From the NCBI GenBank assembly GCA_024137785.1, contig JAHRHZ010000016.1, positions 36,043,543 to 36,107,542 on the forward strand: DNA of 64,000 nt. The letters are read 5' to 3'. The stretch comes from Ginglymostoma cirratum. Its lineage: Eukaryota. Of the stretch, positions 10,206 through 62,708 are shown in pieces. The notes beneath the pieces were generated by a model, which searched no databases, was not told the DNA's origin, and saw only the letters and a program-made list of their open reading frames with translations. How positions within the stretch are numbered: position 1 is the stretch's first letter; each line of letters opens with the position of its first letter. The translations under genes were made by a program, and so were the position numbers.

Positions 10206-10495
10206 ATTAATAAAATAGAAAGCTGGCATCCTCTGTTTACCTGTTAAATGAGGAAATAATTTTAGAAAGTACAAACTGTGGCAATCCTCACTGTTTTGTC
10301 AATTTTCTCCTTCTTGCTTCCTCTTTGAAGAGGACCTTCTAGGTTTGGTTTCAGAACGCTAAGTGATTTGCCCAAGTGGACATTATTCATCTGAGTCCAG
10401 ACAGAGCATGAGTCAACTATGTCTTGAGGATACATTGTAGATTAACTTCTTATCATACATCTTCATTAAGTCATGCACATTGAACAAGAATAGTA

Positions 10496-11780
10496 ACAAA
10501 AACAGAAATTGCTAGAAAATCTCAGCAGGTCTGGCAGCATCTGTGGAGAGAAATCAGAGTTAACATTTTGGTTCCAGTGACCCTTCTTCAGAACTGATGG
10601 CAGCTAAGAAAAAGTTGTTTTTTACTCTACAGAAGACAGGGTGGGGGAAGGAGGGAAGAAGTAAACGATAGGTGGCGATAGAGCCCAGAGAGAGAGAAGA
10701 ACAGTTGGAGAGAAAAAGGAGTGGATAACGGTTAGTCCAGGAGAATGAACGGCTACTAATAGGGCTATTAGTGGCTAACAATGGGTTGCGTGTAATAGAC
10801 CATGTGATAACAAGACCTGATGTGTGGGGGTTGGGGTAAGGACATAGGAGGAGATGCTTCAGGCCTTAAAATTGTTGAACTTGATACTGAGTCTAGAAGG
10901 CTGTAGAGTTCCCAAGCAGGAAATGAGGTGTCGTTCTTCCACCCTGCGCTGAGCTTCACTGGAGCTCTGTAGGAAGTCTGAGACAGAGATGTTGGCCAGG
11001 GAACAAGGTGGCATGTCGAAGTGACAGGCAACTGGAAACTCAGGGTCTTTTTTGCCAACAGAAAACAGATGTTCTGCGAAGTGGTCATCCTGTCTACACT
11101 TCATTCCCCCAATGTAGAGGTGACCACATTGTAAATCGCGAATGCAGTAGACTACATTGTGTGAAGTGCAAGTAAAGTGCTGCTTCACCTGGAAGGTATG
11201 TTTGGGCCCTGGATACTGAGGAGGGAGGAAGTGAATGGGCAGGTGTGACACCTTCTTTTTCAGGGGAAGGATCTCTGGGGCTGTGGCAGTTGTTGGGAGG
11301 GAAGGAGGAATGGACCAGGGTGTCCTGGAGGAAACAGTCCTTGCGGAAGGCTGACAAGGGAGGGGAGGGATTATGTGCCTGGTGATGGCATCCTGTTGGA
11401 CGTGGCAGAAATAGCAGCTAATGATTCTCTGGATGTGGATCCTGGTGGGATGGCTGATAAGGACAAGGGGGATACCACCGCTATTGTTGGAGGGAAGAGA
11501 GATAGTGAGGGCTGAAGTGCAGGAGATGGTCCAACTCGCCTGAGGGCCCTATCAACTACAATGCTGGGAAATCCTCGGTTGAGGAAGCAGGTAGACATTT
11601 AAGAGGCCCAGAAGCTGGCATCATCAGAACAGATGCGATGGAAACAGATGAACTGGGAGAATAGAATAGAGTCTTTACAGGAAGTAGGGCATTAGCGTGT
11701 ATACTCAAAGTAACTGTGGGAGTCAGTTTTGGCTTGTAGTAGATATTGGTGGTCAGCCTATTCCCAGAAACGGAAACATG
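10496..11780 (-). mobile_element. 5'-truncated Penelope-like retroelement (RT thumb + GIY-YIG endonuclease + hammerhead-bearing 3' end)
   Basis: ORF 10859-11251 NVVYCIR…CGHLYIG…HFAEHL…PVACHF (GIY-YIG); FLNRGFP and NIYYKP.TDSHSY motifs; TSD ttgaacaagaatagta (10480-10495) / ttgaaggagaatagta (11781-11796). Confidence 0.9.
10552..10598 (-). ncRNA. Decayed minimal hammerhead ribozyme at the Penelope 3' end
   Basis: Minus strand: aucaguu-CUGAAGA-A-GGGUC-ACUG-GAACC-AAAAU-GUU-aacucugau; GAAAC has become AAAAU, consistent with CpG decay. Confidence 0.65.
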
Positions 11781-11849
11781 TTGAAGGAGAATAGTATCCT
11801 GGATAACTTCCCTCCCTAACCTTGGGTGCTGAGACCAAGTGAGATACCC

Positions 11850-18944: not shown

Positions 18945-20720
18945 ACTCATTCACAGGATATAGACTTTGCTGGCTGGCCAACATTTATTTCCCATCCCTA
19001 ACTGTCCTTCAGAAGTTGTTGGTAAGCTGTCTTATTGAACTGCTACAATCATTTGGTTTAGGTACAGGTGCAATGTTGTTGAGTAATTTCCAAATTTTGA
19101 CCCAATGACTGAAGGAACAGCAATATATTTCTGTGTCAGGATGGGGAGTGGTTTAGAGTAGAAATTGCTGGTGGTAGTGTTCCCATGTATCTGCTGCCAT
19201 TATTCTTCTAGATGGGAGTGGTCATGTGTTTGGAAGGTGCTGTGTAAGGATCCTTGGTGAATATTAAATGTCGTGTAGAATGATACACTGTGTTGCTTTT
19301 GCGATAAAGGGGATGAAATTTTGTGGATATGGTGCCAATCGAGTTGGCAACTTTGTCCTGGATGGTCTCAAGCTTCTTGAGTGTTGTTTGAGCTTCACTC
19401 ATCCAGGCATATGAGGAGTATTCTACTGCACTCCAGACCTGTGTCTTGTGGATGGTGGAGAAGCTTCAGGGAGTCAGAAGGTGAGTTACTTGTTGCAGGA
19501 TTCCTAGCCTATGACCTGCATTTGTACCCACAGTATGTATAATGCGAATCCAGTTCAGTTTCTGGCCAATGGCAACCCCAGCATGTTGTTGGGGGTGGAG
19601 GGTGGGCAGCACCAATAATGCTTTTGGATGTCAAGGGATGCTAGGCAGATTCTCTGGTTGGACATGATTATTACTTGGTGTGGTATGATGTGAATATTAG
19701 TTACCACTTGTCAATTCAAGTCCAGATATCAGTAGGTCTTGCTGCATTTACACATGAACTGCATCAGTATCTGAGGAGTTGCAAATGGTGGTAAACACCG
19801 TCCAGTCATCAGCGTACAGCCATACATCTGACCTTATGATGGGGCGAAGGTCATTGCTGAAGCAGTTGAAGATGATAGGGCCTAAGACAATGCCCTAAGG
19901 AACTGCTGCAGCTGTGTTCTGGAGCTGATGTGACTGATCTCCAACAACCACGACCATATTCCTTTGTGCTAAGTGTGACTCCAGCCACCTGATTTTTTTT
20001 TCCCTTGATTCCTATTGATTCTAATTTTGCTTGGGCTCTCTGATGCTACACTCATTCAGATGTGGCCTTGATATCAGGGGCAGTCACATTCAACTCACCA
20101 CTGGAGTTTAACATTTTTCCCTGTTTGAACTAAGTCTATAACGAGGTCAGGAGATGGGTGGACCTGGTGGAAGCCAGACTCAGTGTTATTTGATAACATT
20201 ATTGAAGGCCTCTTCTATCTCTTTACTGATGATCAAGAGTAGGCTGATGGGCCATAGTTGTTGAATTTGTTCTGCTTTTTGTGTGCATGACATTCCTGGG
20301 CAATTTTTCACATTGCCAGGCAGATGCCAGTGTTGTTGCTGTACTGGAACACTTTGGTTAGAGTTATGGCAAGTTCTGGAGCACAAATCTTCAGTGCTAT
20401 TGCTGGCACATTGTTAGGCCCCATAACCTTTGTAGGATCCAGTGACTCCAACCACTTTGATATCATGTGAAGTAAATCAAATTATTTGAAGTTTGCATTT
20501 GTGCTGATGAGATCCTCCAATGGAAGCTGAGATAAATCATTTACTGACCACTTCTGGCTGAAGATCATTGCAAATACTTCAGCTTTAACTTTTGCATTCG
20601 TGCTAGGCACCCCCATCAATGAGGATGAGGATATTTGTGGAGCCTCCTTCTCCATTGTGTTTAATTGTCTGTAACTATTCACAACTGCATGTTACAAGAC
20701 TGTACAACTTACACAATGAT
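18945..20720 (-). mobile_element. L2 LINE 3' portion
   Basis: L2 tail at about 18945-19060; TTLKKLETIQDK; PISLLLIISK RT motifs. Confidence 0.75.
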
Positions 20721-21963: not shown

Positions 21964-22191
21964 TTCAGTCACAATGTTTCTCCAAATGCTATGACCAAAA
22001 CAATCCTTTCGTAATGCCTTCACTAAGCCAGTGGGAAAGCTCCAACAGACTTTCAACAGGTAAATTTCTGATCAGTGCTTTTCTCAAATTTTCATCAAAT
22101 TCTACTATCAACAGTTTGCCTTTTGATTTTCCTACGTTGGGTTACACATAATTAATTATTGCAATTTTGTTAAAAATATTTTCACAAGTAA

Positions 22192-22423
22192 TGAAAATAG
22201 AAGTTGCTGGAAAAGTTCGGCAGGTTTGGCAGTATCTGTGAAGAGAAATCAGAGTTAATGTTTAGGGTCCAGTGACCCTTCCACAGAACTGTTCTGTGAA
22301 GGGTCACTGAACCTGAAACGTTAACTCTGATTTCTCTACACAGATGCTGCGAGACATGCTAAGCTTTTCCAGCAACTTCTGTTTTTGTTTCTGATTTACA
22401 GCATTTGCAGTTCTTTTGGTTTT
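22192..22423 (+). mobile_element. Penelope-derived fold-back element, family A
   Basis: About 95 bp inverted arms centred near 22290; TSD tattttcacaagtaa (22177-22191) / tattttcccaagtaa (22424-22438); arms match 10496-10595. Confidence 0.9.
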
Positions 22424-22806: not shown

Positions 22807-23394
22807 CCTTGACAATCTAACTATTTTCATATGTACAATTTAGGAGAGGGGAATAGACTGGTCCTCAACTATAGCCAGTCTCAACACAGCCCCATTGTGA
22901 AGCCCACATGTATACACTTGTTCTTGGAGAGTGCATGCAGTTACTATGTTAAAGGAGGCGGATATGATTGAAGGAGCAGTGTTAGAAGCAAAAAGTAACT
23001 GACAACCGAAAGCACTTGTTATATTACCCAAATTTTAATTTTAATTTTCACCTTACAAGCATATACACTGTCATTTTAAAAATTCAAATTTCTTTTTGAC
23101 AGAGATTTTAGTACTCTTTTCAAGTCATTCATTCATTTTCTTTCTCTGTTTTCTCAGTTCCTCACTGAACATATCCATTTTCTCATTCATTTATTGAATA
23201 TCAGTGTCGGTAACTATCCCTGAATTTATTGCCCATCCTGAACTGCCCTTAAGAAGTAATGGTGAGCTTCTTTCTTGAACCACTGCAGTCTGTGGGGTGT
23301 AGGGATACAGACAGTGCTGTTACAATGGGAGTTCCAGGATTATGACGTTGTGATTGTGAAGGAGCAGTAACACGCAATTTCCTCCCTAATAGGG

Positions 23395-23527
23395 TCAACC
23401 CACAGCAGGAGGATTGTAGTGGTTCAAAAAGGCAGCTCACCACCACCTTCTCAAGGGCAACTAGGGATGGGCAAGAAATGCTGGCCAGCCAGCAACACCC
23501 ACATCCCACAAACGAATGAAAAAAAAT
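23395..23527 (+). mobile_element. L2 3' tail in opposite orientation inside the L2 above
   Basis: ggcagctcaccaccaccttctcaagggcaactagggatgggcaagaaatgctgg…gaatgaaaaaaaa. Confidence 0.75.
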
Positions 23528-24778: not shown

Positions 24779-25023
24779 AAATAAAAACCGAAAAAACTGC
24801 TGATGCTGTAAATCAGGAACAAAAACAAAGTAGCTGGAAAGCCTCAGCAGGTCTGGCAGCATCTGTGCAGAAAAAATCAGAGTTAACATTTCGGGTCCAG
24901 CGACCCTTCCTAAGAACTCTGTTCTGTTCTGAGGAAAGGTCAGTGGACCCAAAACATTAACTCTGATTTTTCTTCACAGGTGCTGCCGGACCTGCTGAGC
25001 TTTTCCATCAACGTTGTTTTTTT
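24779..25023 (-). mobile_element. Penelope-derived fold-back element, family A
   Basis: Inverted arms around 24915; TSD tcatttttaggcat (24765-24778) / tcacgtttaggcat (25024-25037); decayed hammerhead cores. Confidence 0.9.
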
Positions 25024-25120
25024 TCACGTTTAGGCATGCCTAGTACTGTTCCTAGCATGCCCTCCTGCGCTCTTCATTGAACCACAGTTGATCTGCTGGG
25101 TTGATGGAAATCATGGAGCG

Positions 25121-28987: not shown

Positions 28988-29643
28988 TTGCTGCTCATTT
29001 CCTCCATGTCTACCTTTCCTTAATCTAAATGTATTTATGTTTTAAAAGGAGCCAAATTAACCAGGTTTCCTCCAATTTAATTAAAGTAAGTAGGTAAATG
29101 AGAGAAGGTAATAAAATGTGACACACAGATTAGAAATATGAATTGAGTAAAAATCACAGTTGGTTAATAGGCTGTTGTCATGTTTCCTTCTTGATGGTGA
29201 CATAACTGGCTTGTCTGGCTTCCAGGCCTCAGACTAAGAATCTTCCTAGGGCGTCTAATAGCTGTCCCCAAGCTATGACCTTCATATAGCACTAGCAAGC
29301 ACTTCAGCCATTCATACCTTCAGGCCATGGGTAGAAGTTGCTTTTAACTCTGGTCTTTTTGTACATTACTGGTTGGGGCATAATCCGTAGGAAGTAATTT
29401 TCTGCTAAGTGTAGTCAACCCCTCATTAAATCTGTCTCCACAGCAGATCACAGACCAGTTTGTTTTAGCTTATCTGTTTTAAGTCCTTTTAACACCCTCA
29501 GATGTGACATTCCATTATTCCTCTGCAGACTTTGTTCCTCTTAAATAAAAACCAAAAAAACTGTGGATGCTGTAAATCAGGAACAAAAACAAAGTTACTG
29601 GAAAAGCTCAGCAGGCCTGGCAGCATCTGTGGAGTAGAAAACA

Positions 29644-29683
29644 GAGTTAACGTTTCGGGTCCGGTGACCCTTCCTCAGAACTC
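29644..29683 (-). ncRNA. Minimal type I hammerhead ribozyme, intact core
   Basis: Minus strand gaguu-CUGAGGA-A-GGGUC-ACCG-GACCC-GAAAC-GUU-aacuc: 5 bp stem I, 5 bp stem II, palindromic ACGU in place of stem III. Confidence 0.8.
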
Positions 29684-29688
29684 AGGAA

Positions 29689-29728
29689 GGGTTCTGAGGA
29701 AGGGTCACTGGACCTGAAACGTTAACTC
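29689..29728 (+). ncRNA. Minimal type I hammerhead ribozyme, intact core
   Basis: ggguu-CUGAGGA-A-GGGUC-ACUG-GACCU-GAAAC-GUU-aacuc; predicted cleavage after 29723. Confidence 0.75.
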
Positions 29729-30207
29729 TGTTTTCTCCTCCACAGATGCTGCCAGCCTGCTGAGCTTTTCCAGCAACTTTGTTTTAGTTCCTCTTAGACA
29801 GTCACTGAATTTACATCCTTTTAAAGTCTGCTCACTGTTCTGCACTTAAGTTGGACTTCAAGTTTGCAAGTATTTCTACATTAGTTAGCTCACCAATGGC
29901 TTTACTTCATCAGGTTGACGTGACACAGCCTTTGCTTTGGACTGTGGTCTTGGGTCTCGGTTAGATAGTTTACTCCCTGAAATCCTTTGTTGCTCTGTGC
30001 AGGCCACTAAACCAGGCTTTTAAATGTTTGACTGGTATTGGTAGGTGAATTAACCCATGGTCTCTTGGCTGAGAGGTTTCAATCATGACACGTTCACCTG
30101 ATTTTTCATAGCTGCCTTGGAAATTTTCAAGTGCTCTCAAGCTATTTCACAGACTCTCATGAATTGCTCCCAGGATGCTTGTTAGTCTAACATAGAGACT
30201 TTGTAGA

Positions 30208-30294
30208 CAACAGTGTGGAGCTGGAAGAACACAGCAGGCCAGGCTGCATCAGAAGAGAAGGAAAGTTGATGTTTCAGGTCGGGACCCTTCTTCA
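30208..30294 (-). mobile_element. Family C single arm
   Basis: cagtgtggagctggaagaacacagcaggcc…gatgtttcaggtcgggacccttcttca; matches 35975-36062. Confidence 0.75.
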
Positions 30295-31667
30295 ATGGGC
30301 TCTTGAGCTAAGTCCCTGGTGGTAAGAAGAAGAAAATCTAGTTCTTTATCCCAGTCATACTTGGCAGTATGCCCTGATCATTATTGTTAGGGTCTAGTGG
30401 TACCATTAGAATGCACCCTGTGACTGCAGATGATACAAGGAAGACTTCAGTTGGGTCACACCCAGATTATCCTTGACATCATGGACTATTGTGGAGATGA
30501 AATCTGAGCTCTGATCCAACTGGATCTTGATGATCAGATCATACCTGGTGAAGAATTGAGTCAATCCTCTCACCACTGTTTTGGCAGATATGGTTCTCAG
30601 GGAAACAGATTCTGGGAAATGGTTAGCCATGTCAACAATGACAAAGATATACTGGTAGCCCCCTTTTGTTTTGGGCAGGTGTCCCACACAGTTCACTGTT
30701 ATCTTGCTAAACAGTCCCCAAAAGCTGGCGTGGGAAATACAGATTCAGGTCTTATTGCAGGTTGATATTTCTCACAACCAGGTCGGTGTGGCAGCTTCTA
30801 TAAGAACCTCCTACATTCTTGTGGAGCTGTGGCCAATAAAGATGCTGACTGATCCAAGCTTGAGTTTTGCACAAACTGACATACCCAACCATTGGGACTT
30901 TTGGGCTAGTCCAAATAATTCTCTTTTTTAGTTTCAAAAACATACATTATTCATAAAAATCTAAACAGATATTCTCACCACGGGTACCTGGTGGATCACT
31001 GTACTCTCCTTGTTTGCAGGTCTCTGAGATGGTCACCTCATCTACACCTCATTTTTAATGGGATAGCAATCAGCGACTGCTTTCAGTCTGAGCATCTTCT
31101 GAGCCAGTGGTTTTTAATGGTGGGTCAACTTGTCAGGCTGGAAGGTGTATATATTACCTCCTTAGGAGTCTTCTAAGTTCCTGAGAAAGGTTTCAGATAC
31201 CCAGATACCAATGGTCTTCTGATTCCAATTTCCAATGATGGAGCTTGACTGGTTGTAGATTATATAACCACGTGGTTAGGGAAAATATACTTTCCCCTGG
31301 AGCTGTTCACTCTCCCCAACCAAAGTGGATCGCTCACAGACCATGGGGGATGCTACATTGCCAAAGAACAGGTTGATCCTGTCTGCAGGCGAGCTGTGGG
31401 TGACTCCCATGGTCACTGGTTCTGACAGAAGGTCACTTTTCAGATGTACCCAGTGAAGGGGAATGGACCTTTATTTCCTTTTACCAGCAGCTTGGCACCT
31501 TCTGCACTCTCTACTGGATAGGTAATGCCTTTTCCAGGAAAGATTGGCTGGGTCTGGTATCCCTCAGTATCACGGGAGGTTTGCTGACCTCATTCTGGGT
31601 AAATGTGGCCCCTCTTCTGTCAGACACAAATTCCTGTTTCTCTCAGGGATTTGTTTGATCTAATACG

Positions 31668-33180
31668 ACCATAAGACTTCAAGACATAGGAGCAGAAATT
31701 AGGCCATTCAGCTAATTGAGTCTGCTCTGCCATTCAATCATGGCTGATAAGTTTCTCAACCCCATTCTCCCGCTTTATCCCTATAACTCTTGATCCCCTT
31801 GACAATCAAGAACCTATCTAGCTCCGTCTTAAATATACTCAATGACATGGCCTCCACAGCCTTCTGTGGCAGTGAGATTCACCACTGTCTGGCTGAAGAA
31901 GTGTCTTCTTATCTCTGTTCTAAAAGGTCTTCCCTTTACTCTAAGGCTGTGCCCTCGGCTCCTAGTGTCTCCTACCAATACAAACATCTTCCGAACATCT
32001 ACTCTCTTCAGGTCATTCAGTATTCTGTAAGTTTCAATTAGATCCCCACTCATCCTTCAAAACTCCATCGAGTATAGACCCAGAGTCCTTAAACATTCCT
32101 CATATGTTCCTTATGTGTCCTTAAACGTTCCTCATAAGCTTTTCATTCCTGGGACCATTTTTGTGAATCTCTTCCTAACCCGCTCCAGGGCCAGTACATC
32201 TTTCCTGAGATATGGGGCACAAAACTGCACACAATATTCCAAATGTGGCCTGATCAGAGCCTTATAGAGCAATGGAAGTACATCCCTGCTTTTATATTCA
32301 AGTCCTCTCAAAATGCCAAAATTGCATTTGCCTCCCTAACTACCTACTCAACCTGCAAGTTTACCTTGAGAGAATCCTGAACTAGAACTCCCAAGTCTCT
32401 TTGCACTTCAGACTTCTGAATTTTCTCCCCATTTAGAAAATAGTCCATGCTTTTATTCTTCTTACCAAAGTGCATGACCTCATACTTTCCCACGTTGTAC
32501 TCCATCTGCCACTTCTTTGCTCACTTTCCTAACCTGTCCAAATCCTTCTGCAGCCTCCCTGTCTCCTCAATACTACCTGCCCCTCTACCTATCTTTGCAT
32601 TGTCTGCAAACTTAGCCAGAATGCCCACAGTTCCTTCATCTAGATCATTAATGTACAAAGTGAAAAGTTCTTGTCCCAACACTGACCCTTGTGGGACACC
32701 ACTTGTCACCGGCTGCCATCCTGAGAAAGACCCTTTTATCCATACTCTCTGCTTTCTGCCAGACAGCCAATCTTCTATCCATATTAGTACCTTGCCTCTA
32801 ACATCATGGGTCCTTTATTTTATTCAGCAGCCTCTTGTGTGGCACCTTGTCAAAGGCCCTTTTGAAGTCCAGGTAGATAATATCCATTGGCTCTCCTTGG
32901 TCTAACCTGCTCATTATTTCCTCAAAGAATTCTAATAGATTTGTCAGGCATGACCTCCCCTTGATGAAGCCATGCTGAATTTGCCCTATTTTAACATGCA
33001 CTTCCAAGTATTCAGAAATCTCATCCTTCACAATGGACTCTGAAATCTTACCCATGAGCAAGGTTAGGCTAATTGGCCTGTAATTTTCAGTCTTTTGCCT
33101 ACTCCCTTTTTAAACAGTGGTGTCACATTCGCAATATTCCAGTCCTCTGGGGCCCTCCCTGACTTGAGCGATTCTTGAAA
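31668..33180 (-). mobile_element. 5'-truncated CR1 LINE
   Basis: QHGFIKGRSCLTNLLEFFEE, YLDFKRAFDKVPH, GVPQGSVLG, KFADNAK; ccataagac tail; closely related to 37906-39400. Confidence 0.92.
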
Positions 33181-34090
33181 GTAATACACAATCTCAGGAG
33201 TGCCTTTACGGGATTTGCAGCTGTAGTCAGAGCCATAGCCTGGCTTGCTATATTGTCTGAATTACCCTCATTTTCAACATGGAGTGTATGGGCTGCAATA
33301 AATCTCACTGGTTTTCACAGTAGTTTCATCTCACTGGGTTTTACAGTAGTTTCCAGTTGGCACAGACACATTCCACCATTTGGCAGCTACATCAGACACG
33401 CTTCTTGATCTCACTTTTCATCTCAGCACCACTCTTTCTATCCTAATGAGGGCTCCCAGAATTTCCTTCTCTCATGGGTGTTAGTTTTTATGTTTGCCTC
33501 TCTAGCTGAATCTTTTCCAATGTGAGAGCCTGCCTTGCCCCTGTCACTCTGTATTCCTCCAGATGTGTTCTTATGGTGAAGGGGATGGAGTTTTTGAACT
33601 CCTTCAGAATATTACTTCACAAAGTTCTGCCGGTTGGCTTCTGTTTTAAATGCCAGTACCCATTTGTCAAAAGCAGGCTATTCAAGCCTGTTGAGTTCCA
33701 GACATCTCTGCTCAGGCCATTTCCTGGGGGCATGTGTCTCACGCTAACTGGTATGTGCTTAATATAGTTATTTTTGCAGCCTCGTAGTAAACAGCACTGT
33801 CCTCTGGCAAGATATAACAAACTTTGTGAGCTTTCCCTGAAAATTTACTCTGAAGTGGTAAGGCCCAATGCTGGACTGGAACCTAACTCTCATAGATACT
33901 AGGAGCAGAGGAAGGCCATTTGACTCTTCAAACTTGCTCCTCTGTTCAATATGATCGTGGCTGATCATTCATCACAACACCATATTCTTGGTGAGAGATA
34001 AAAGGTACTGCAGATGCTGGAGAATCCGAGATAACAAGCATGGGGCTGGATGAACACAGCAGGTCAAGCAGCATCATAGGAGCAGGAAAA

Positions 34091-34124
34091 CTTGACGTTT
34101 CGGTCCTAAACCCTTCATCAGAAA
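34091..34124 (-). ncRNA. Minimal hammerhead ribozyme (one stem II mismatch)
   Basis: uuu-CUGAUGA-A-GGGUUUAGGACC-GAAAC-GUC-aag. Confidence 0.7.
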
Positions 34125-34138
34125 ATGAATCACAAAAT

Positions 34139-34172
34139 TTTCTGATGAAGGGTTTAGGCCCGAAACGTCAAG
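34139..34172 (+). ncRNA. Minimal type I hammerhead ribozyme, intact core
   Basis: uuu-CUGAUGA-A-GGGU-UUAG-GCCC-GAAAC-GUC-aag; predicted cleavage after C34169. Confidence 0.82.
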
Positions 34173-35216
34173 TTTTCCTGCTCCTATGATGCTGCTTGAC
34201 CTGCTGTGTTCATCCAGCCCCATGCTTGTTATCACCATATTCTTGGTTTCTCTCCATATCCCTCGATGCCATTAAAACCTAAAAATGTATCTCTTTCTTG
34301 AATATATTCAGTGACTTGGCCTTCTATGGTAGCAAACTCAACAGGTTCAGCACCTCTAAGTGAAGAAATTTTTCTTCACTTCAGTCCTAAATGGTCTATC
34401 CCATATCCTGAGACTGTGACCCTGGTTCTAGACTTGCCCAACGGGGCAACATCCTTCCTGCATCTAGTCTGTTTAGCCCTGTTAGAATGTTACATGTTTC
34501 AATCGATCCCCTCTCATTCTTCTAAATTCAAATGAAATCAGGCTCAGCTGAACCAATCCCTCCACATAAACGGTCCTGCCATTCCCACTGTTAGTCGAGT
34601 GAACCTCTGCTGCATTCCCTCTCCAATAAGCATATCCTCTTTCAGGTAGAGGGATCAAAATTACACACATTATTCCAGGTACAGTCTCACTGAGTCTCTG
34701 TATAACTGCTGTAAGACATCCCCACTTCTAAACTCTAAATCCTCTTGCAATAGAGTATAACATATCAGTTGTTTTCCTAATTGATTGATACGCCTGCCTG
34801 TTTACTTTCATCGACTAGTGTACATGGAAACCCAGATCCCTTTTTACATCACATTTCCCAACATATCACCATTTAAATAAAACTCTGCATTTTGATTTTT
34901 CACACCGAAGTGTACAACTTCATGTTAACTACGTTATACAGCATCTGCCATGTATTGGCCACACACTCACCATGCACTTTTTTTTGCTTGCTCATGGTTG
35001 CGTGCCCTCTATTTGCCATTTCTGTGCATTTTTGGCAGTGCTGTCTCCATTGTAGCTAATAGAAAAACTTTGCACAGAATGTGCGTTGTATGCACAAATA
35101 AGAACATGACAATAGGAATGGAGTAGACCAAAACTGTCTTCCAAGCCTCCTCCATCATTCAATTTGGCCACAGTTAATCATCAGCCTTAATTCCACTTAC
35201 CCATTCATTTCCCTTA

Positions 35217-37905
35217 TTCATAGAGTAATACAGCAAGGAAACAGGCCCTTCAGCCCAAACTGGTCCATGCTGACCTTGTGCCCACTCAGCTAGTTCCAAT
35301 TGCCTGCATTTGGTCCATATCCTCCTAAACACTTCCCATCCGTATCCCTATCCAAACGTTTTTAAAATGTTGCTATTGTACCTGCCTCAACCGCTTTCTC
35401 CGGCAGCCCATTCCATATACGCACCAATCTCTGTGTGAAGAAGTTGCCCCTCAGGTCCTTCTTAAAACTTTCCCCTCTCACCTTAAACCTATGCCCTCTT
35501 GTTTTCAATTCCCCATCCCTGGGAAATATGCATTCATCCTATCTATGCCCCTCATGAATTTATACATGCTACTAAAGTCACCCATCATTCTCCTAAGTTC
35601 CAAGCAATAAAGTCCTATCCTGGCCAACTTCTCCCTATAACTCAGGCCTACTAGTCCTGGCAACATCCTCATAAATCTTCTTCACACTTTCCAGTTTAAC
35701 TATGTCTTTCCTATAACAGGGTGACCAAAACTGTACACAATACTCCAAGTACGGTCTCATCAACAACGTATACAACTGGAACATAATGTCCCAACTTCTG
35801 TACTGAATGCCTCGACAAATGAAGGCCAGTATGCTAAATGCCTTCTTCACCAACCTGCCCACCTGTGATGCTACTCTCAACGAACTATGTACTTGTACTC
35901 CTAGGTCCCTCTGTTCCACAATGCTCTTCAGGACCTTCTCAGAGATAGTAAGAACTGTAGACGCTGGAGTCAGAGATAACACAGTGTGGAGCTGGAGGAA
36001 TACAGCAGGTCAGACAGCATCAGAGCAGCAGGAAAGCTGACGTTTCGAGTTGGGACCCTTCTGAAGACCCGAAATGTCAGCTTTCCTGTTCCTCAGATGC
36101 TGCCTGACCTGCTGTGTTCCTCCAGCTCCACACTGTGTTAACTCTTCAGGACGTTACCATTCACAGTGTAAGTCCTACCTTGGTTTGACTTTCCAAAGTG
36201 CAACACCTCACACTTATCTGTATTGAAATGCATTTGCCAATTCTCAGCCCACTTCCCCATCTAATTAAGAGCTCTCTGTAATTTTTGATAACATTCCTCG
36301 CTATCAATGACATCTCTTAATTTTGTATCATCTGCAAATTTACTAATCATGCCTTGTACATTCACATCCAGATCATTTATGTAAATAACAAGTAATAAAG
36401 GTCCTAGCACTGACCCCTGTGGTACATCACTGGTCACAGGCCTCCAGTGTGAGAAACAATCATCAACCATCACCCTCTGTTTCCTACCATCGAGGTAATT
36501 TTGAATATAATTAGCTAGCTCTCCCTTGATCCTATGCAACCTCACCTTCAAGACTAGCCTGCAATGCGGGACCTTGTCAAAGGCCTTACTAAAGTCCATA
36601 TTGATAACATCCACTGCCCTACCCTCATCTATCCCTTTAGTTACCTCTTCAAAAAACTCCAAAAGTTTTGTCAGACATGTTCCCGCACACAAATCCGTGC
36701 TGACTATCTCTAATCAGACCTTGACTATCCAAATGTTGGTTGATCCTGTCCCTCAGTATTCTCTCCAATATCTTGCCTTTCACTGATGTCAGGCTCACTG
36801 GCCTGTAGCTTCCTGGCTTGTCTTTGCTACCTTTCATAAACAACGGAACAACATTAGCCACCCTCCAGTCTTCTGGAACTTCACCAGTGGCATAAAATGA
36901 AGCAAAAATCTCTGCAAGGCCCTCTGAAATTTCTTCCCTAGCCTCCCAAAATGTCTGAGGATGGTCTTGATCAGGCCCAGGGGATTTATCCACCTTAATG
37001 CACTTTAAGGCTACAAACACCTCCTCTCTGACAATATGTATGCGGTTCAAAACATTCCCACTTGTTTCCCTTATTTCCTTAGCATCCATTATTCTCTCCT
37101 CCAGTAAACACTGAGGAGAAATATTCATTAAAAATCTCCCCCATCTCCTATGGCTCCACAAATAGATGGCCACGCTGACCTTTAAGGGGACCTATTCTCT
37201 CCCTAGCCACCCTCTCACTCTTAATATAGCTATAGAACCTTTTGGAATTATCTTTAATCTTATCTGCCAAATCCATCTCATTTCGTCCTTTTGGCTTCTC
37301 ATTTCCCTCCTAAGAGTGCGCCTGTACTTTTATTAGTCATCCAGGGACTCACTTAAACCCAATAGCTTAAACGCAATGTATGCCTTCTTGTTTTTCCTGA
37401 CCAGAGCCTCAAAATCTGTCGTCAGCCAAGGATCCCTAAACGTGCCAGCTTTACCCTTCACCCTAACAGGGACATACTTTCCTTGGACTCTTGATAACAC
37501 ACTTTTAAAAGCCTCCCATTTGCCAGTCATTCCTTTTCCTTCAAATGCACTCACGCAATCGACCGCTGCTAGATCCTGTCTAATGGTCCCAAATTAGCCT
37601 TGCTCCTGTTCAGGACCTTAACATGTGGACGTGTTCTATCTTTTTCCCTAACTATGTTAAAACTAAGAAAGCTGTGGTCATTGGACCCAAAATGCTCTCT
37701 GACTGATACTTCAGTCACTTGTCCAACCTCATTTCCTAAGAGGAGGTCCAGTGTTGCACCCTCCCAAGTACAGCCCTCTACATACTGATTTAGGAAACTT
37801 GTTTGAACACATGTGAGAAATTCCACCCCGTCCAAGCCTTTTACACGCTGGGTGGCCCAGTCAATACACAGGAAATTAAAATCTCCAACAAATATTACTC
37901 TGTTA
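35217..37905 (-). mobile_element. CR1 LINE 1, 3' part (ORF2)
   Basis: VDKSPGPD, YRPVSLTS, DFSKAFDKVPH, VPQGSVLGP, KFADDTKL, LEYCVQFWSP. Confidence 0.92.
35938..36141 (-). mobile_element. Fold-back element, family C, centre partly deleted
   Basis: Inverted arms around 36060; TSD ctcttcaggacctt (35924-35937) / ctcttcaggacgtt (36142-36155); interrupts CR1 ORF2. Confidence 0.9.
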
Positions 37906-40900
37906 TAAGACCATAAGACATAGGAGCAGAAATTAGGCCATTCGGCCTATCGAGTCTGCTCCGTCATTTGATCATGGCTGATAAGTTCCTCAACCCTATT
38001 CTCCCACTTTCTCCCCGTAACCCTTGATCCCCTTGATAATCACGAACCTATCTATCTCCGACTTAAATATACTCAATGACCTGGCCTCCACAGCCTTCTG
38101 TGGCAGTGAATTCCATAGATTCACCACTCTCTGGCTGAAGACGTTTCTCCTTATCTCCATTCTAAAAGGTTTTCTCTTTACTCGAAGGCTGTGCCCTCGG
38201 GTCCTAGTCTCTCCTACCAATGGAAGCATCTTCCCAAAATCCACTCTGTCCAGGCCATTCAGTATTCTGTAAGTTTCAATTAGATCCCCTCCCCCATCCT
38301 TCTAGACTCCAATGAGTATAGTCCCAGAGACCTCAAACGTTCCTCATATGTTAAGCTTCTCATTCCTGGGACCACGTTCGTGAATCTCCTCTGAACCCGC
38401 TCCAGGGCGAGTACATCCTTCCTGAGATATGGGACACAAAACTGCACACAATACTCCACATGTGACCTGACCAGAGCCTTATAAAGCCTCAGTAGTACAT
38501 CGCTGTTTTATATTCAAGACCTCTCAAAATAAATGCCAATATTGCATTTGCCTTCCTGACTATTGACTCAACCTGCAAGTTTACCTTGGGAGAATCCTGG
38601 ACTAGAACTCCCAAGTCTCTTTGCACTTCAGACTTCTGAATTTTCTCCCCATTTAGAAAATAGTCCATGCTTTTATTCTTCTTACCAAAGTGCATGACCT
38701 CACACTTTCCCACGTTGTACTCCATCTGCCACTTCTTTGCTCACTATAACCTGTTCAAATCCTTCTGCAGCTTCCCCGTCTCCTCAATACTACCTGTCCC
38801 TCCACCTATCTTTGTATTGTCTGCAAACTTAGCCAGAATGCCCACAGTTCCTTCATCTAGATCATTAATGTATAAAATGAAAAGTTGTGGTCCCAACACT
38901 GACCCTTGTGGAATGCCAATTGTCACCGGCTTCCATCCTGAGAAATACCCTTTTATCCCCACTCTCTGCTTTCTGCCAGACAGCCAGTCTTCTATCCATG
39001 CTAGCACCTTGTCTCCAACACCATAGGCCCTTATCTTACTCAGCAGCCTCCTGTGTGGCACCTTATCAAAGGCGTTCTTGAAGTCCAGGTAGATAACATG
39101 CATTGGATCTCCTTGGTCTACCCTGCTCGTTAATTCCTTGAAGAATCTGAGCAGATTTATCGGACTGACCTCCCCTTGATGAAACCATGCTGACTTTGCT
39201 TATTTTACTGCACACTGCCAAATATTCAGAAATCTCATCCTTCACAATGGACTCCAAAATCTTACCCACTATCGAGTTTAGGCTAATTGGCTTGTAATTT
39301 TCCATCTTTTGCCTTACTCCCTTTTTAAACAGGGGTGTCACGTTAGTGATTTTCCAGCCCTTTGGGACCCTCCCTGACTCTAGTGATTCCTGAAAGATCA
39401 CCACTAACACCTCCACTGTCTCTTCAGCTATTTCCTTTAGAACTCTGGGGTGTAGTCCATCTGGTTCAGGTTATTTATCCACCTTCAGGCCAATCAGTTT
39501 AACTAGCACCTTTTCCTTGGTGATGGCCACCACACTCAGCCCTGCCTCCGACTCTCTTGAATTTTTGGGATATTACTCATGTCTTCCACCGAGAAGACTG
39601 ACACGAAGCAATTATTCAGTTCCTCAGCCATTTCCTTGTTCCCCGTGACTATCTCTCCACCGTAATTTTCCAGTCGTCCAATGTCCACTTTTGTCTCTCT
39701 TTTGCCCTTTATATATCTAAAGACATTCTTACAGTCTTCATTTATATTACTGGCTAGCTTACCCTCATATTTAATCTTCTCCCTCCTTATTTCTTTTTTT
39801 GTTGCCCTCTGATGGTCTTTGTAAGCTTCCCAATCCTCTGGTTTCTCACTGCCCTTCGCCACATTATATGCTTTCTCTTTTGCTTTTATGCTATCCCTGA
39901 CTTCCTTAGTCAGCCATGGTTGCCTCATCCTCCCTGTACCATGCTTATTTTTCCTAGGAATGAATTTTTGCTGTGTCTCCCGAATTACTCCCAGAAACTC
40001 CTGCCATGGCTGTTCAACTGTCTTTCCTGCTAGACTCCTCTTCCTGTCAATTCTGCTCAGCTCCTCCTTCATACCTCAATAGTTGCCTTTATTCAGCTGT
40101 AATACCGTTACCTCTGATTCTATCTTCTCCCTCTCAAATTGCAGAGTAAATTCTATCATATTATGATCACTGCCCCCTAAGGGTTCCTTCACCTTAAGCT
40201 CCCTTATCAAGTCTGCCTCATTGCACAACACTAAATCCAGTATTGCCTGTCCCCTTGTGGGCTCCACCATGAACTGCTCCAAAAAGCCTCCTCATAGACC
40301 TTCCACAAACTCCTTTTCTTGCAATCCACTACCAACATGATTTTCCCAGTCCACCTGCATTTTGAAATCCCCCATGATCATTGTGACTTTGCCTTTCTGA
40401 CACACCTTTTCTATCTCCCGGTGTATCTTACGCCCCAGCTCCTGACTTCTGTTTGGAGGCCTGTACACAACTCCAACTATTGTTTTTTGACCTTTGCGGT
40501 TCCTCAACTCTCTCCACACAGATTCTACACCATCTGACCCTACTTCATTTCTTCCTATTGATTTAATTTCATTTCTTACTAATAAGGCAACCCCAACCTG
40601 CCTACCTTTTCGATCGGATGAATATCCTTGAATATTCAGTTCCCAATCCTGATCCCCTTGCAGCTACGTCTCCGTGATGCCCACCATGTCATGCCTGCCA
40701 ATTTCGATCTGTGCTACAAGCTTACTTACCTTATTCTTTATACTGTGTGCATTCAGATATAACACCTTCAGTCCTGTATTAACCGTCCCTCTTCTCATTG
40801 TCATTCATTTATCCAGTGTGCTTGAAATTTGATTGCTAGCCCTTTCCAAACACTCTGTCCTATTTGTGTCTGTGCTGGAGACTTTAATAACCTCTCCTGA

Positions 40901-42530
40901 GTTCTCCTTCCCCGTTATTTCTTTCATATTTTTCCACGTAGTTGAATCCATCACTGCATATGTTAACCTGCTGCTTTGTTTCCCACTGGGGCAAGTATCA
41001 CCATTCCCTTCCCCATCACTTTCTAGTTTAAAGTCCTGTCAACCAGCCTATTTATCCTTTTCATTAGAACATTGGTCCCAGCTCGAATCAGGTGGGGACC
41101 ATCCCGACGGTACAGATCCTTCCTGTTCCAATACTGATGCCAGTGCCCCATGAAAATGAACCCCTCTTTCCAGCACCACTCTTTTCGCCACGTGTTTACT
41201 TCCCTTATTCTCATGCCTCTATGCCAATTAGCATGTGGCTTGGGTAGTAATCTGGAGATTATAACCCTTGAGGACCTGTTTTTTAATTTGGTTCCTAGCT
41301 CATGATAATCTCTGAACAGGTCCTCTTTCCTAGTATTGCCTATGTTTTTTGTTCTGGCGTGGACCACAACTATTGGATCCTCCCCCTCCCGCTCCAATAT
41401 CCTTTCAAGCTGGTCAGAGATATCCCTTACCCCGACACCGGGCAGGCAACACACCATGTGCGACTCTCAATCCTGTTTACAAAGGATACTATCTATCCCC
41501 CAAAATATAGGATCCCCTACAACTACCACCTATCTTTTTGCTCCCCCCTCTTGAATGGCCTCCCGTACCACGGTGCAGTGGTCAGTTGGCTCATCATCCC
41601 TCCAGCCCTTTTCCTCATCCACACAGGGAGCAAGTACCTCGTACCTGTTGGACAAGGTCAAGAGCTGAGGCTTCTCTGTTCCTGACTGCAGAATCCCTCT
41701 ACCTGCCTCACTTGCAGTCACCCCCTGCTGTCCCTGGCCACTGACCAAATTTGAAGCACTTAATCTACCAGATGTGACTGCTTCCTGAAACACAGCATCC
41801 AGGTACTTCTCCCCCTCCCAGATGTGCCGCAGTGTTTGAAGCTCCGGTTCCAGCTCATCAATTCTGAGCCGAAGTTCCTCGATTCTGAGCCGAAGTTCCT
41901 CGAATAACCAACACTTGCTGCAGATGTGGTCGCTGCAGTTCGCAATGGGATCAGCTAGCTCCCGCATCATCCAGCTACAACACATCACCTGGCCAGCCAT
42001 TTCTACTTAGCTAATTACTTCATTAATTTATATAATTTATTACAATGAATTAATTAAATTTGCTGATACTTCTTGGTATTTTTCAAATTTAGTGCAGATT
42101 TCCTACCAGCCAATCAGGTCACAGACTCCCTGTGACATCACCCCAGTTTTTTTGGCAGCTAGTGCCCCGAGCTCTGGCCCAGTTGTAGTCACCTCTGCTC
42201 TGCTGCTCCTCCCTCCGACAGCTTCCCGCCAAACAAAAGCAGAGTAAAAGAAAGGAAAAAAAAACTCGCCTTATTGATCCTCCACATAGAGTTTTTTTTT
42301 GGTTAGAGGAGGAGGATGGGTGGGAGACACTACATGTGTATTGTTTCAGGTTTAGCCACTGCCAGAATATATGGTTTTACTTACCCAGCAGTCCCCTCGT
42401 GCTCTCCTGGCTCCCGCCGCTCAACAAGGAAGGCTGCAGTCTCACGAGGTAAGTCTTTTATACAGAAGGCTTACCTTCCCGGTTGCCCTCGTGCTTTCTC
42501 CCAGCTCCCGCCGCAAAACAATGAAGTCTA
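37906..42530 (-). mobile_element. Full-length CR1 LINE 2 (5' UTR, zinc-finger/coiled-coil + esterase ORF1, APE-RT ORF2), frameshifted, nested in CR1 LINE 1
   Basis: ORF1 pieces 41530-42000 (C..C…CSKC, leucine zipper) and 41023-41457 (SGNH-like CLPG…DGPHL); ORF2 GVVYRPP, MGDF, LDLVL, GSDH, DFKNAFDKVPH, FADN; ataagaccataagac tail. Confidence 0.93.
41861..41902. repeat. 21 bp tandem duplication (x2) in CR1 ORF1
   Basis: attctgagccgaagttcctcg twice; encodes EELRLRI EELRLRI. Confidence 0.95.
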
Positions 42531-48527: not shown

Positions 48528-48807
48528 AAATAAGAGCAGAGGCATTGACCGTGATCTTCAAACAACCCTGAAACACAAGGATAGTACTAGATGATGACAG
48601 AATTGCCAATGTTACATCTAACGTCAAGAAGAGTGTAAAGATAAACCTAGCAACTACACCAATCAGTTTCACCTTGCTGCAGTGGGAGTGCTCAGAAACA
48701 ATTATCTTGAATAAAATTAACAATCACTTGGATTATTAAGAAAAAATCAGCATAAGGTTTTGTAAAATAATTGTTAGATTGAGCAAAAATCTCCATCATC
48801 TAAAATA

Positions 48808-48905
48808 GAGATAACACAGTGTGGAACTGGAGGAACACAGCAGGCCAGGCAGCATCAGAGGAACAGGAAGGTTGCCGTTTCGGGTTGGGACCTTTCTTCA
48901 GAAAA
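48808..48905 (-). mobile_element. Family C single arm with near-intact hammerhead
   Basis: Minus strand CUGAAGA-A-AGGUCCCAACCC-GAAAC-GGC (cleavage triplet mutated). Confidence 0.8.
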
Positions 48906-51317: not shown

Positions 51318-51525
51318 AATGGGAGTGCCGGCGTTGGAATGGAGTTGGCAAAGTCAGAAGTCACATGACACCAGGTTATAGTCCAATAGGTTTATTTGAA
51401 ATCACAAGCTTTCAGAGCACTGCTGCTTCGTTAGGTGACCTGACAAAGGGGCTATGCTCCAAAAGCTTGTGATTTCAAATAAATCTGCTGGGCTACACGC
51501 TGGTGTCATGTGACTTCTGACTTTA
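51318..51525 (-). mobile_element. Fold-back element, family E (AGCU-type hammerhead)
   Basis: Arms 51350-51436 / 51438-51524; TSD tccagttctct (51307-51317) / tccagttccct (51526-51536); arm consensus cac-CUGACGA-A-GGAGC-AGU-GCUCC-GAAAG-CUU-gug. Confidence 0.85.
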
Positions 51526-57386: not shown

Positions 57387-57556
57387 AAAAACTGAAAGAA
57401 CTGCGGATGCTGTAAATCAGGAACAAAAACAAAGTTGCTGGAAAAGCTCAGCAGGTTTGGCAGCATCTGTGAAGGAAGAAACAGAGCTAACGTTTCAGGT
57501 CCAGTGACCCTCAGCAAGACCTGCTGAGCTTTTCCAGCAACTTTGTTTTTGTTCCT
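57387..57556 (-). mobile_element. Fold-back element, family A, centre deleted
   Basis: Perfect 15 bp TSD gaaatgatactgaat (57372-57386 / 57557-57571); long arm joins a short inverted arm at about 57515. Confidence 0.9.
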
Positions 57557-59055: not shown

Positions 59056-59160
59056 AAAGGAGCGAGACTCCGAAAGCTAGTGTTTTCAAATATACCTGTT
59101 GGACTATAACCTGCTGTCGTGTGATTTTTGACCTAGTGCCAGCCCAGGCACCTCCACATC
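59056..59160 (+). mobile_element. Family E single arm
   Basis: aaaggagcgagactccgaaagctagtg…cctgttggactataacctg; begins within hammerhead stem II. Confidence 0.75.
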
Positions 59161-61672
59161 AATCCACATCCAACAACAGATACTTTCCAGCAATTTTCAA
59201 TGGAAAGCAACCAGAATCGTGCAGCTTGGCCGAAAAACATTTATTTGTATGCTATTCATTCACACGTTGTTCTTTTCTATTATGATATAATTTATTTCAT
59301 GGTTGGGATAAAAAGTAAGAGGTTGTTTCGCTTTCAAGACCAGAATGTAGTGCAGACTAAATCCAACAGCGTGTTTGTGGTAGTTCATGAAGCTATGCCT
59401 CCTTACTTTCCTCAATGTTTATGGAGTAGTCACCCACAATTCATATATAATCAATTGTCTCTCTCTAATGGAGAAAGATGCTTTAGGTCTTTTGTAGCCT
59501 GAAGCTCCATACGAGAAGTAGATGGTGTGTAGGTAGAAGTTGAGAACCTAAGTACGTATCCATCAAATATTGTAACCTAGATACTATGCTGAGTGATATT
59601 AGTGACATCAACTTATTTGTCTGCTATTTTAGGGATGGGGCAACTGACTTGCTTGAGATGGGTTTTAATTTCAGCCAACATTTAAAACAAGGTAATATCA
59701 TTGCAAATATTTAATAATTCAAATTATTGAATATTTTCCACACCTGTATTATAAATGGTGGGTTACACATTTGGAATTGATCTCCCATTAAAAGGATAAA
59801 AATTAAGTGATGAAGTGGAGCATATTGCTGTAGAAATTAAAACACAGGCCAGCTACCATCTTTCGCCATAATTGGAAAGATCAGCAGTGGAACTTTGAAA
59901 ATTTTAAGAGTTATTTAAGAGTACTTAATTTTGTTTTTTTACATGCACACATCCTTTACAATATAAATTTTGATTTTGCACTTATTTAACAGAAAAACCA
60001 TTGGCAACGGAATAAATTGAGTTGCACTACCATAACAGAAATTGAATTATCTTCCTTGGTTGTGAAACTGAAGACAATTGATGTTGCAGGGGACTGAATT
60101 TTATCCCAGGCTTTGAGACCTTAACGTTGAAACAAAATGGGCTTCTGAGCCCACACTTGCTGGCATTAATCCAGTACAGTACCCTTTTGGCAGGTATTCT
60201 CCTAATTAGCCTTATCCACACAAACTAACTATTAACAGCTCTGTAGCTTTTGCAACCCCATTAGGACAGATGATTATGTCACATCTTGAAGAATCTCAGA
60301 AACCGCAAGGGTACCTCATCTTGGAGGCACACTTATGAGGCATGGATCTAAGTTGAAAATGATTAGATTGAAGCCAATAGGTCATTTGGATTGGAGGGGA
60401 AGCCTTTCTTGGTGAGGGGTGAGTGCACTGGGAACGTTCTGCCAGTGGCAAAATCATGGCACATTCATAAAATGATCCTTAACTGGGACAACAAGCATCT
60501 CATTTTATACTCAGATATTTGAGAAAACAAGTTGAGACTCAAGACTCATCGCTCACAACTAGCATCCGAAATGGATTCAAACTCTGACCACAAAGTTGAC
60601 AATTCATTTTGATAATCCCCTGTGTTCTCTCACTGTCTTTCACAAGTGTTCACTGAAAGTCTTTTCCTTTTGAATGTATTTCATCTACTACTCATATTTC
60701 ATCTTCCTTCCTTACTTTTCCATCTCTACCCCCAAGCCTCTTTCAATGAGTTTTCCCAATTTCACTGTAAACTGTAAAACCACTTCATAAGACTACAATA
60801 TGAGTTTAGCTGTGTTTCATGTGAGAAACTGACCCCAAAACACAAACACCTCACATTTTCCTGCTCATGTTTTCTGATGCGGGAGAGATTTGACGAAGAA
60901 CTTTTTATGCAGAGTGGTAATGACCTAAACCTATTGCTCAAAAGGATTTTAAAGCAGAGACAATCTATGGTTTCAATGGAAATGAATGGGCTTCTGAAGG
61001 AAATAAACTTGCAGGGCTCCAGGGATAACAATGGGCACTGCAACTGACCAGTTTGCTCTAGAGCTTGCTTAGAACTTATAGGCTTGAATGGTCTGCTTCT
61101 GGGTCAGATGTGACTGTAAATTTCAATATGGAAATGATACTTCCTTTGTTCTGTGTTATGAAATACTGAACTGACATAGGATGTGTTTTAAGAACAGGTG
61201 GAGAGTGCAGGAGATGGGTGGTCACAAAAAACAAGAGCAAAAAAATGAGCCAATTTAAAGCAGGTGATGGTAATGCCAATTATAGAATACTTTGTGCAGG
61301 TTTGCGATCCTACAATAGTAGGAATGAAAAGTTATAGTGTACAGTATAAATTCATCAGAATTATATTGGAGATGAGAAACTATAGATATAAGGAGAAGTT
61401 AGAGCGCACTTTCAATGGAACGGAGAAAGATAAAAGGAAAACTAATGGAACATTTTAAAATTATGAAACCTTTGATGTAATGATCAGGAGAAACAGGCTG
61501 CAGTTTACTGAAGCCAATGAACAAATGATGTCTATTGTCTGCATGGCTTACATTTGTCCATTTAACTTCCATGAGGTTCTGCAGTACAGCTTGCTGTTAG
61601 TTGGAAATGTTAATAGCACATGCCCTCTACAGGTCATCTGGGACCTGTATGAACAGAACAAGGTACTACCTC

Positions 61673-61760
61673 AGATAACAAGGTGTAGAGCTGGATGAAC
61701 ACAGCAGGCCAAGCAGCATTCGAGGAGCAGGAAAGCTGATGCTTCGGGTCTAGACCTTTC
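61673..61760 (-). mobile_element. Family D single arm (related to B/C)
   Basis: gataacaaggtgtagagctggatgaacacagcaggccaagcagcat…gatgcttcgggtctagacc. Confidence 0.8.
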
Positions 61761-62610
61761 CCCAGAAGGTACTATGTAATTTTTTTTACTCAATCGTTGT
61801 CTTCAGTTGTACTTCCTGTGTCCTGACTTAGCGTGATTTGTTCAGTCAGTCAGCTATGTTATGCCCAGTAACATCTTTAAGCACAGAATCCATGCAATGT
61901 GTGCATGTGTTGGAGGATTGTGAAGAGCAGACTGACACGTGGAGTTGAGGTGAAGATGAGATCAGCCCTAATCATGTCAAATAACAGTGCAAGCTCGAGT
62001 GGCTAGATTGCCTACTCCTGCTCCTATTTCTTATGTCTAATATTATAACCATATAAATAGAGTCATAAATAAACTTCAAGATATCTGTCTTCGTAAGAAC
62101 ACACGTCTCTTTGGTATGTGTTACAGAAACCAAAATACATTTAAAAATACAGCAAATGACATCAATCCCAATCACTTTTTCCCCCAATTCCCACTTACTT
62201 CAATTTTGCTAAGGAATTCAATTGCTGTTTTGATGTCATGGGCAACCAGTCAGCTCACCTCTGGAGCTCAAATTTTTGTCCATTTTCAGGCCAAACATAA
62301 ACTGACCATCAATTAACAGACTATTGACGAGCAAATGTCATTTATTAGCACTGTCAACAACATAGTGACAGAATGTTATCAAGTGAAAATTGTCTCTAAA
62401 GCAATCAGATATCAGAAAATTTTTCTCTATGCATTTAGAGTATGGAGTTCTATGTCACAGAAAGTATTTGAGGCAGTAACACATTGAAATCTTTAAAAGA
62501 AACATGGATAAGTATACAAATGAGGGAAAAAGCTATGGTTAGAGAAAAAGATAGCTGGTTCAGCTTTGGATTATTTTGGCAAAATGCTGGCAAAAACATG
62601 AAGGGTTCCA

Positions 62611-62708
62611 TTTTCTGAAGAAGGGTCTAGGCCCGAAACATCAGCCTTCCTGCTCCTCTGATGCTGCTTGGCCTGCTGTGTTCATCAAGCTCTACACCTT
62701 GTTATCTC
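62611..62708 (+). mobile_element. Family D single arm with near-intact hammerhead
   Basis: uuu-CUGAAGA-A-GGGUCUAGGCCC-GAAAC-AUC (ACGU changed to ACAU, consistent with CpG decay). Confidence 0.82.

Follow-up and report, generated by a model that had tools for sequence, protein, structure and literature searches.

A dead Penelope-like element copy in Ginglymostoma cirratum is a sibling of head-to-head pseudo-LTR palindromes in its neighbourhood

Inverted pseudo-LTRs and a tail of 30-40 bp on one side are published anatomy of Penelope-like elements (PLEs). Within the group, a CX(2-5)CxxC zinc finger in the linker marks Neptune and Nematis and is absent from Penelope/Poseidon, according to the accessible portion of bioRxiv 10.1101/2021.04.23.441226. 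For PAc, the Poseidon element of Anolis, the available part of PMC11167929 reports that the reverse transcriptase (RT) starts internally at two tail-delimiting sites and that cleavage and extension take place on both strands of the target; hammerhead cleavage is described there as dispensable in vitro and a dimer is predicted, and palindromic products are not mentioned in that part. Minimal hammerheads occur in fish PLEs (PMC4209133), and retrozymes have been reported in one cartilaginous fish (bioRxiv 10.64898/2026.07.22.740005, available excerpt). Literature searches returned no report of bare head-to-head pseudo-LTR palindromes in sharks, and the accessible portions of PMC8969392, PMC4350176, PMC12910113 and PMC5753468 contain nothing on palindromes; such families may be catalogued in Repbase or Dfam.

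The window analysed here is a stretch of 64,000 nucleotides of G. cirratum (GCA_024137785.1, contig JAHRHZ010000016.1, positions 36,043,543 to 36,107,542). Positions 10496-11780 on its minus strand are a real, 5'-truncated PLE copy lying inside a 16-bp target-site duplication. The two copies of the duplication (10480-10495 and 11781-11796) match at 14 of 16 positions, a score that random pairs of positions attained in 0 of 150 cases at one search width and in 1 of 200 at the other. An earlier note on this DNA had pointed to the repeat and to its palindrome-like length, and both observations held, the duplications of the family A palindromes described below measuring 13-15 bp.

Read in the sense of its ORF, the copy begins at a truncation point within the RT thumb, the remnant of which (11531-11780) was recognised by tblastn and by frameshift-aware alignment to full-length homologues. 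It continues through the RT-endonuclease linker, with the remnant of a CX(2-5)CxxC zinc finger (11210-11530) whose first cysteine position has become a stop near 11260, and through a GIY-YIG endonuclease remnant (10859-11209), whose homologues match Pfam GIY-YIG, to the stop codon at 10861-10859. From thumb to stop the copy is collinear with full-length homologues carrying RVT_1 and GIY-YIG. The 3' UTR that follows, from stop codon to hammerhead (10595-10858), is repeated in public contigs and leads to a pseudo-LTR arm (10496-10594), which stops at the same point as the short arms of the palindromes; both the tail and an inverted arm are missing from the copy. The arm carries a minimal type I hammerhead motif (10559-10594), which is decayed: aligned to the intact motifs at 29678 (minus strand) and 29694 (plus strand), it has a mismatch in stem II and an altered second core box, and it fails the hammerhead descriptor. 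The core is sense to the ORF, its first C at 10591 lying 268 nt past the stop, in keeping with the distance of about 270 bp given previously; from core to end the copy measures 96 nt, against 90-95 nt in short arms. At the point where most arms begin lies a heptamer (10591-10597, minus strand) that we take to be a perfect match to the Initiator consensus. An Initiator function may be presumed for it, and it can alternatively be read as a splice-acceptor AG.

The copy had been described as coding. What stands is a PLE ORF remnant that starts in the RT thumb; compared with each of three references, the frame contains five frameshifts and two stops, with three distinct stop positions overall. The RT catalytic core is absent. 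In the endonuclease remnant the conserved Cys, Arg and Asn positions are gone, and three of the four residues are left of a CCHH motif that is conserved in the homologues. The copy therefore lacks what an active autonomous element should have, namely an intact ORF, an RT core and catalytic endonuclease residues. Because of the five frameshifts, the stops, the missing RT core and the lost endonuclease residues, it is dead, its ribozyme core being decayed as well.

A phmmer search with the C-terminal 146 residues as query gave 836 proteins at E<=0.001, the best being P0001 (E 4.6e-28). When 16 homologues were scanned against Pfam at E<=0.01, GIY-YIG was matched by 14 and RVT_1 by 9, many of the matches falling below curated cut-offs; the decayed frames of 10496-11780 themselves had no Pfam match. 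A word-indexed protein search with the copy gave no match either, and the same kind of search with P0001 retrieved one full-length homologue. PDB searches with the homologues found nothing, nor were relatives found among viral contigs. The closest named homologues are from a ray, a skate and two sharks, and of 20 homologues looked up, 9 bore an organism label, in every case a cartilaginous fish, which suggests this group as the host. Pieces of the endonuclease lie inside annotated cartilaginous-fish gene models (P0001, P0002, P0009 and P0025), which are probably annotation chimeras.

A tree of 64 C-terminal sequences, spanning thumb to endonuclease, excluding loci that cover fewer than 240 residues and including no named Neptune or Poseidon reference, placed the copy beside a ray protein. 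The clade has a support of 0.955, and the linker finger is found in all seven of its other members; in the alignment of homologues (A2), conservation of the cysteines of this finger is 90% or higher. Since the linker zinc finger is present, the element can be classed as Neptune-type and not as Penelope/Poseidon; the clade assignment rests on this motif, with which Nematis is also compatible. Naiad and Chlamys, which have an N-terminal endonuclease and no hammerhead, do not fit an element with a C-terminal endonuclease and a hammerhead. Among 98 related loci from other animals, 18 have a sense minimal hammerhead 109-1038 nt past the end of the ORF, and because of this recurrence the ORF-then-hammerhead layout is ordinary for the group. 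Eighteen loci with PLE-like RT matches (L081-L098) lie in prokaryote genome records, mostly metagenome-assembled, where they probably represent eukaryote host DNA in those bins.

The terminal 100 bp or so had been said to be nearly the same as four palindrome arms. The match is real: 10492-10597 aligns with seven arms (22187-22291, 22291-22392, 24815-24918, 24923-25024, 29579-29682, 29691-29795 and 57419-57511) at E values from 1e-21 to 1e-29. The likeness is more modest than stated, the terminal 100 bp being 80-89% identical to these seven family A arms. Arms of different palindromes are mutually 73-89% identical; the two ranges overlap, so that the arm of the copy resembles the palindromes no less than these resemble one another. 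Regarding the arms cited at 22192, 24779, 29544 and 57387, the first is tail-less and the other three begin with a tail of ~35-40 bp that is absent from the copy.

To which element the arm belongs could be judged from the public contigs of four relatives (4 of the 24 runs listed), compared at 80% likeness. Summed contig depth, which is no copy number, was about 0-70 in the flanks, thousands to hundreds of thousands in the body and millions in the arm (about 100 times the 3' UTR), and it rose and fell at both copies of the target-site duplication. Among 32 listed pieces, of more than 375,000, at least five span the junction between arm and 3' UTR with at least 31 nt per side; four of these five have 300-880 nt of different left flank and are thus paralogues. 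The outer junctions were bridged as well: the relative termed organism B has contigs across both, and organism A across the right-hand junction, which indicates that the insertion predates the splits from these two organisms. A duplication of the arm by itself was searched for and none was found (best score 6, a value that 43 of 200 null pairs also attained). Thus, the arm belongs to this PLE family as an integral end. With no duplication around the arm alone, and with the arm continuing into the 3' UTR in at least four paralogous contigs, the palindromes can be recognised as head-to-head pseudo-LTR insertions of the family; the outcome that the earlier note had held against itself, an independent insertion abutting the element, did not materialise.

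Four family A palindromes lie in the window. The one at 22192-22423 has a short arm on the left, a tailed arm on the right and a 15-bp duplication with one mismatch; the next two have a tailed left and a short right arm, with a 14-bp duplication containing two mismatches at 24779-25023 and a 13-bp duplication containing one at 29544-29783, where both hammerheads are intact. The fourth (57387-57556) has a tailed left arm, a short right arm of ~45 bp and an exact 15-bp duplication. No two centres are alike: in the same order, the first is 1 nt long, the second reiterates the start of the arm over 8 nt, the third is a 9-nt sequence nearly identical to the core, and the fourth has been deleted. 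Each palindrome has one tailed arm, the tail (~35-40 bp) being the difference between the two arm ends; in the three palindromes that were measured, tailed arms end 127-136 nt and short arms 90-95 nt past the core. Throughout families A, B and C the arms end at one of two distances past the core, either 90-97 nt or 127-136 nt. Arm starts cluster likewise. Of the 12 other arms in family A, 8 start no more than ~3 nt from a single position immediately ahead of the core; in public contigs the strand switches at 12 of the 15 joints listed, 11 of these lying at 10593-10596, and loose ends pile up at 10594 in two of the four listed runs.

The hammerhead descriptor matched at four places in the window, each of them within an arm, where 0.08 matches would be expected according to 60 simulated sequences; Rfam detected no hammerhead in the window. 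Matches of the hairpin repeats to Rfam microRNA models were sub-threshold only, and a microRNA reading was rejected. Contigs from viruses, metagenomes and prokaryotes yielded no match to a 23-nt arm pattern. In three of the four tailed arms, an ATG within the arm begins a reading frame that crosses the tail; the fourth contains a shift of one base and a stop, and an ORF start in the arm was therefore not accepted. Altogether, the window holds 27 arms and one body, the arms being solo or head to head and not in the head-to-tail tandem units of retrozymes. The tail-less solo arm at 61669-61765 has a 9-bp duplication of its own (score 9, reached by 2 of 200 null pairs); the other eight of nine solo arms tested had no convincing duplication and stayed below that score.

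The copy at 10496-11780 had been put forward as the likely parent of the family A palindromes. Besides being dead, it differs from all seven palindrome arms at three columns, and it has a one-base length variant in common with the 22192 palindrome only, a combination that points to sister subfamilies. The copy is thus a sibling of the palindromes and not their source, and the source elements are elsewhere or extinct. No intact source copy was recovered from the sequences analysed; loose ends in the public contigs (listed runs) reveal two tail variants in the wider genome. The companion claim, that the same RT and endonuclease made both, is supported at the level of the family, given that the arm is integral and equally similar and that the duplications agree in length, and not at that of this particular copy; any single palindrome may stem from the enzyme of family A or from that of the homologous families B and C.

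Over 99 columns the arm of the copy is identical to family A at 85, to family B at 65, to family C at 62 and to family D at 50. Arms of A, B and C are 70-85% alike in local alignments and have a common end spacing; families B and C share ancestry with A, which is not clear for D. A search for coding parents of the other families had been suggested, and the 64-kb window contains no coding partner for B-D. The two family B palindromes (33993-34232 and 62758-63280, the latter spanning an assembly gap of N) are young, with arms 97-100% alike and exact duplications of 15 and 16 bp. Family C comprises one palindrome and four solo arms (35938-36141, 30201-30294, 48807-48905, 61669-61765 and 62609-62708), the palindrome having lost its centre and lying in a 14-bp duplication. 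The arms at 61669 and 62609, opposed at a distance of 845 bp, are separate insertions; a single spaced palindrome made of 61669 and 62613 was rejected for want of a shared duplication. Family D (51350-51524 and 59068-59132) is a hammerhead-like palindrome centred just before the core, in which no duplication was found, and possibly represents another PLE clade.

The window also contains an inverted pair at 23178-23524 (with a further piece at 18956-19050), 73% alike, with no duplication and no hammerhead that passes the descriptor; these pieces may resemble the 3' part of a shark SINE. Decayed minus-strand LINE copies with RVT_1 and endonuclease matches (31671-33114, 35635-37946 and 37905-42006), which we assume to be CR1-like, are preceded upstream by a weak GDSL-like match. 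An integrase core fragment (rve, E 2e-7) occupies 30406-30744 on the minus strand. A 101-residue frame at 1961-2266 has a hydrophobic stretch, a basic tail and no Pfam match; it may resemble a small vertebrate membrane protein of the C11orf87 type.

The following account would explain the arms, the palindromes and the lone copy together. The element RNA would start a few bases before the hammerhead, and the RT would initiate at one of two internal positions, ~95 or ~135 nt farther along, a behaviour demonstrated in vitro for the Poseidon element PAc. Initiation within the first pseudo-LTR would give a short run-off cDNA. One such cDNA would leave a solo arm; one cDNA per nicked target strand, with the run-off ends joined, would leave a palindrome with a variable centre, a one-sided tail and one duplication. 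The RT would reach the 3' UTR and the ORF only when primed in the downstream pseudo-LTR of a read-through transcript, and 10496-11780 would be such a read-through product, stopped after 1.28 kb. That the palindromes are pairs of run-off cDNAs primed from both target strands is our leading candidate, to which we would give slightly less than an even chance. We favour it because the non-inverted copy ends at the tail-less site and because most arms have an Initiator-like start in common. The short end would be a primary start, since it terminates lone insertions that have their own duplication (10496-11780 and 61669-61765).

The Initiator-like point is a candidate transcript start, suggested by sequence. 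No RNA data set appeared among the listed carriers of the element, which says nothing about its expression. In relatives, two observations weigh against the account. The Initiator signal was weak, with YYANWYY in 6 of 28 cases against a background of 11%, and TCA[GT]T in 9 of 28 against 4%, the latter pattern having been chosen post hoc and related copies counted. In three relatives, moreover, the 5' edge of the pseudo-LTR was placed at about -9, +1 and -46 relative to the core, so that a sharp edge is not a general feature. The eight of nine solo arms that had no convincing duplication are a further point against it. The start of the arm may also be read as a splice acceptor, for which the available part of PMC4209133 offers a precedent in D. 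virilis.

In a related formulation, which we hold with less conviction than the account above, the palindromes would document target priming from both ends by a PLE enzyme acting as a dimer: a transcript beginning at the 5' edge of the hammerhead would give two run-off cDNAs, one per RT start site, primed on opposite target strands and joined centrally. Centres would then sometimes come from short reiterative copying of the first bases of the template, in a telomerase-like manner. If this is true, tail-less lone copies would make both RT start sites primary in the Neptune clade, and the huge copy number would make the PLE integration pathway readable by statistics.

The rival that fares best against twin run-off priming, although we judge it unlikely, is fold-back. 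Here a tail-primed cDNA reaches the 5' end of the RNA and snaps back to copy itself, or an antisense RNA primes itself, and microhomology joins the product to the second target end. Several features agree with it: microhomology of 1-9 nt exists between the target and the ends of the short arms, centres contain short pieces templated from the first bases of the arm, and both arms of each palindrome carry the same subfamily length variant. Self-priming on an antisense template is moreover the explanation preferred for head-to-head repeats in the accessible part of PMC3846280. However, the short end also closes the two lone, non-inverted insertions named above, each with its own duplication, and in three families short ends lie at 90-97 nt, matching the second start site described in the available text of PMC11167929.

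That a related subfamily (B, C or a different one within A) supplied the enzyme which mobilised the palindromes in trans strikes us as improbable. The 70-85% likeness and the same end spacing of A, B and C arms would allow it, as would the three columns that set the copy apart from all seven palindrome arms and the two tail variants among loose ends. Against it, the arm is nearer to A (85 of 99) than to B (65) or C (62) and as close to the palindromes as they are mutually, and co-adapted enzymes and cis sequences were described, for the two PLE types treated there, in the accessible portion of PMC3846280.

It is still more doubtful that the palindromes form a self-propagating non-autonomous family, MITE- or retrozyme-like, derived once and copied as units. 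The ratio of 27 arms to one body and the ~100-fold higher contig depth on the arm than on the 3' UTR are what such amplification would produce, and PLE-derived non-autonomous retrozymes do exist (bioRxiv 10.64898/2026.07.22.740005, available excerpt). Unit copying is nevertheless hard to reconcile with four different centres in four family A palindromes, with a tailed side that varies and with common solo arms, and the published animal retrozymes are, in that same excerpt, defined from head-to-tail tandems. Finally, chance abutment of an independent arm on a coding fragment, conceivable in view of the abundance of arms, can be dismissed as having next to no likelihood, because one duplication encloses arm and body and none the arm alone, because four paralogues with other flanks show the same junction, and because a sense hammerhead 109-1038 nt past the ORF end recurs in related loci.

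Taken as a whole, the account given here is very probably the best explanation of the locus: the identity of the element is shown, and its mechanism, ranked among mechanisms, stays at a little under an even chance. Abundant hairpin repeats of cartilaginous fishes are now assigned to PLEs, and with one sharp start and two sharp ends the choice between twin priming and fold-back becomes testable on any shark assembly.

The comparison with known systems can be drawn from the available parts of the respective sources. Animal non-LTR retrozymes (bioRxiv 10.64898/2026.07.22.740005) are, like the arms, non-coding, hammerhead-bearing and derived from pseudo-LTRs; they form head-to-tail tandems, whereas the units here are head-to-head pairs with duplications. 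Penelope of Adineta vaga (PMC3846280) has inverted pseudo-LTRs, an optional 31-bp tail, an Initiator-like motif and palindromes at the inverted junction; in contrast to the shark families, it is low-copy, holds ORF or captured DNA inside and makes duplications of 8-10 bp instead of 13-16 bp. The minimal type I hammerheads of metazoan PLEs (PMC4209133) resemble those of the window in the unpaired base before stem II, the G-C first pair, the palindromic remnant of stem III and the short stem I, although the motif of the 10496-11780 copy is decayed; the dual opposite-strand motifs of Schistosoma are ~100-700 bp apart, as against ~10-20 bp between the cores at the palindrome centre here. With PAc (PMC11167929) the elements have in common a hammerhead in the pseudo-LTR, AT-rich junctions and two defined 3' ends ~100-140 nt past the hammerhead that delimit the tail; Poseidon differs in being without the linker finger, and the ORF of PAc starts inside the hammerhead, whereas an ORF start in the arm is unproven here. 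The Neptune clade (bioRxiv 10.1101/2021.04.23.441226) agrees in having RT followed by a C-terminal GIY-YIG, with the CX(2-5)CxxC finger and the CCHH motif in the homologues, and in its 5' truncation, pseudo-LTR, inverted copy, 30-40 bp tail at one end and variable target-site duplication. From the Neptune elements described there, the 10496-11780 copy differs by having neither tail nor inverted arm, and the family A palindromes differ by consisting of two bare pseudo-LTR arms without coding DNA, which far outnumber the coding copies.
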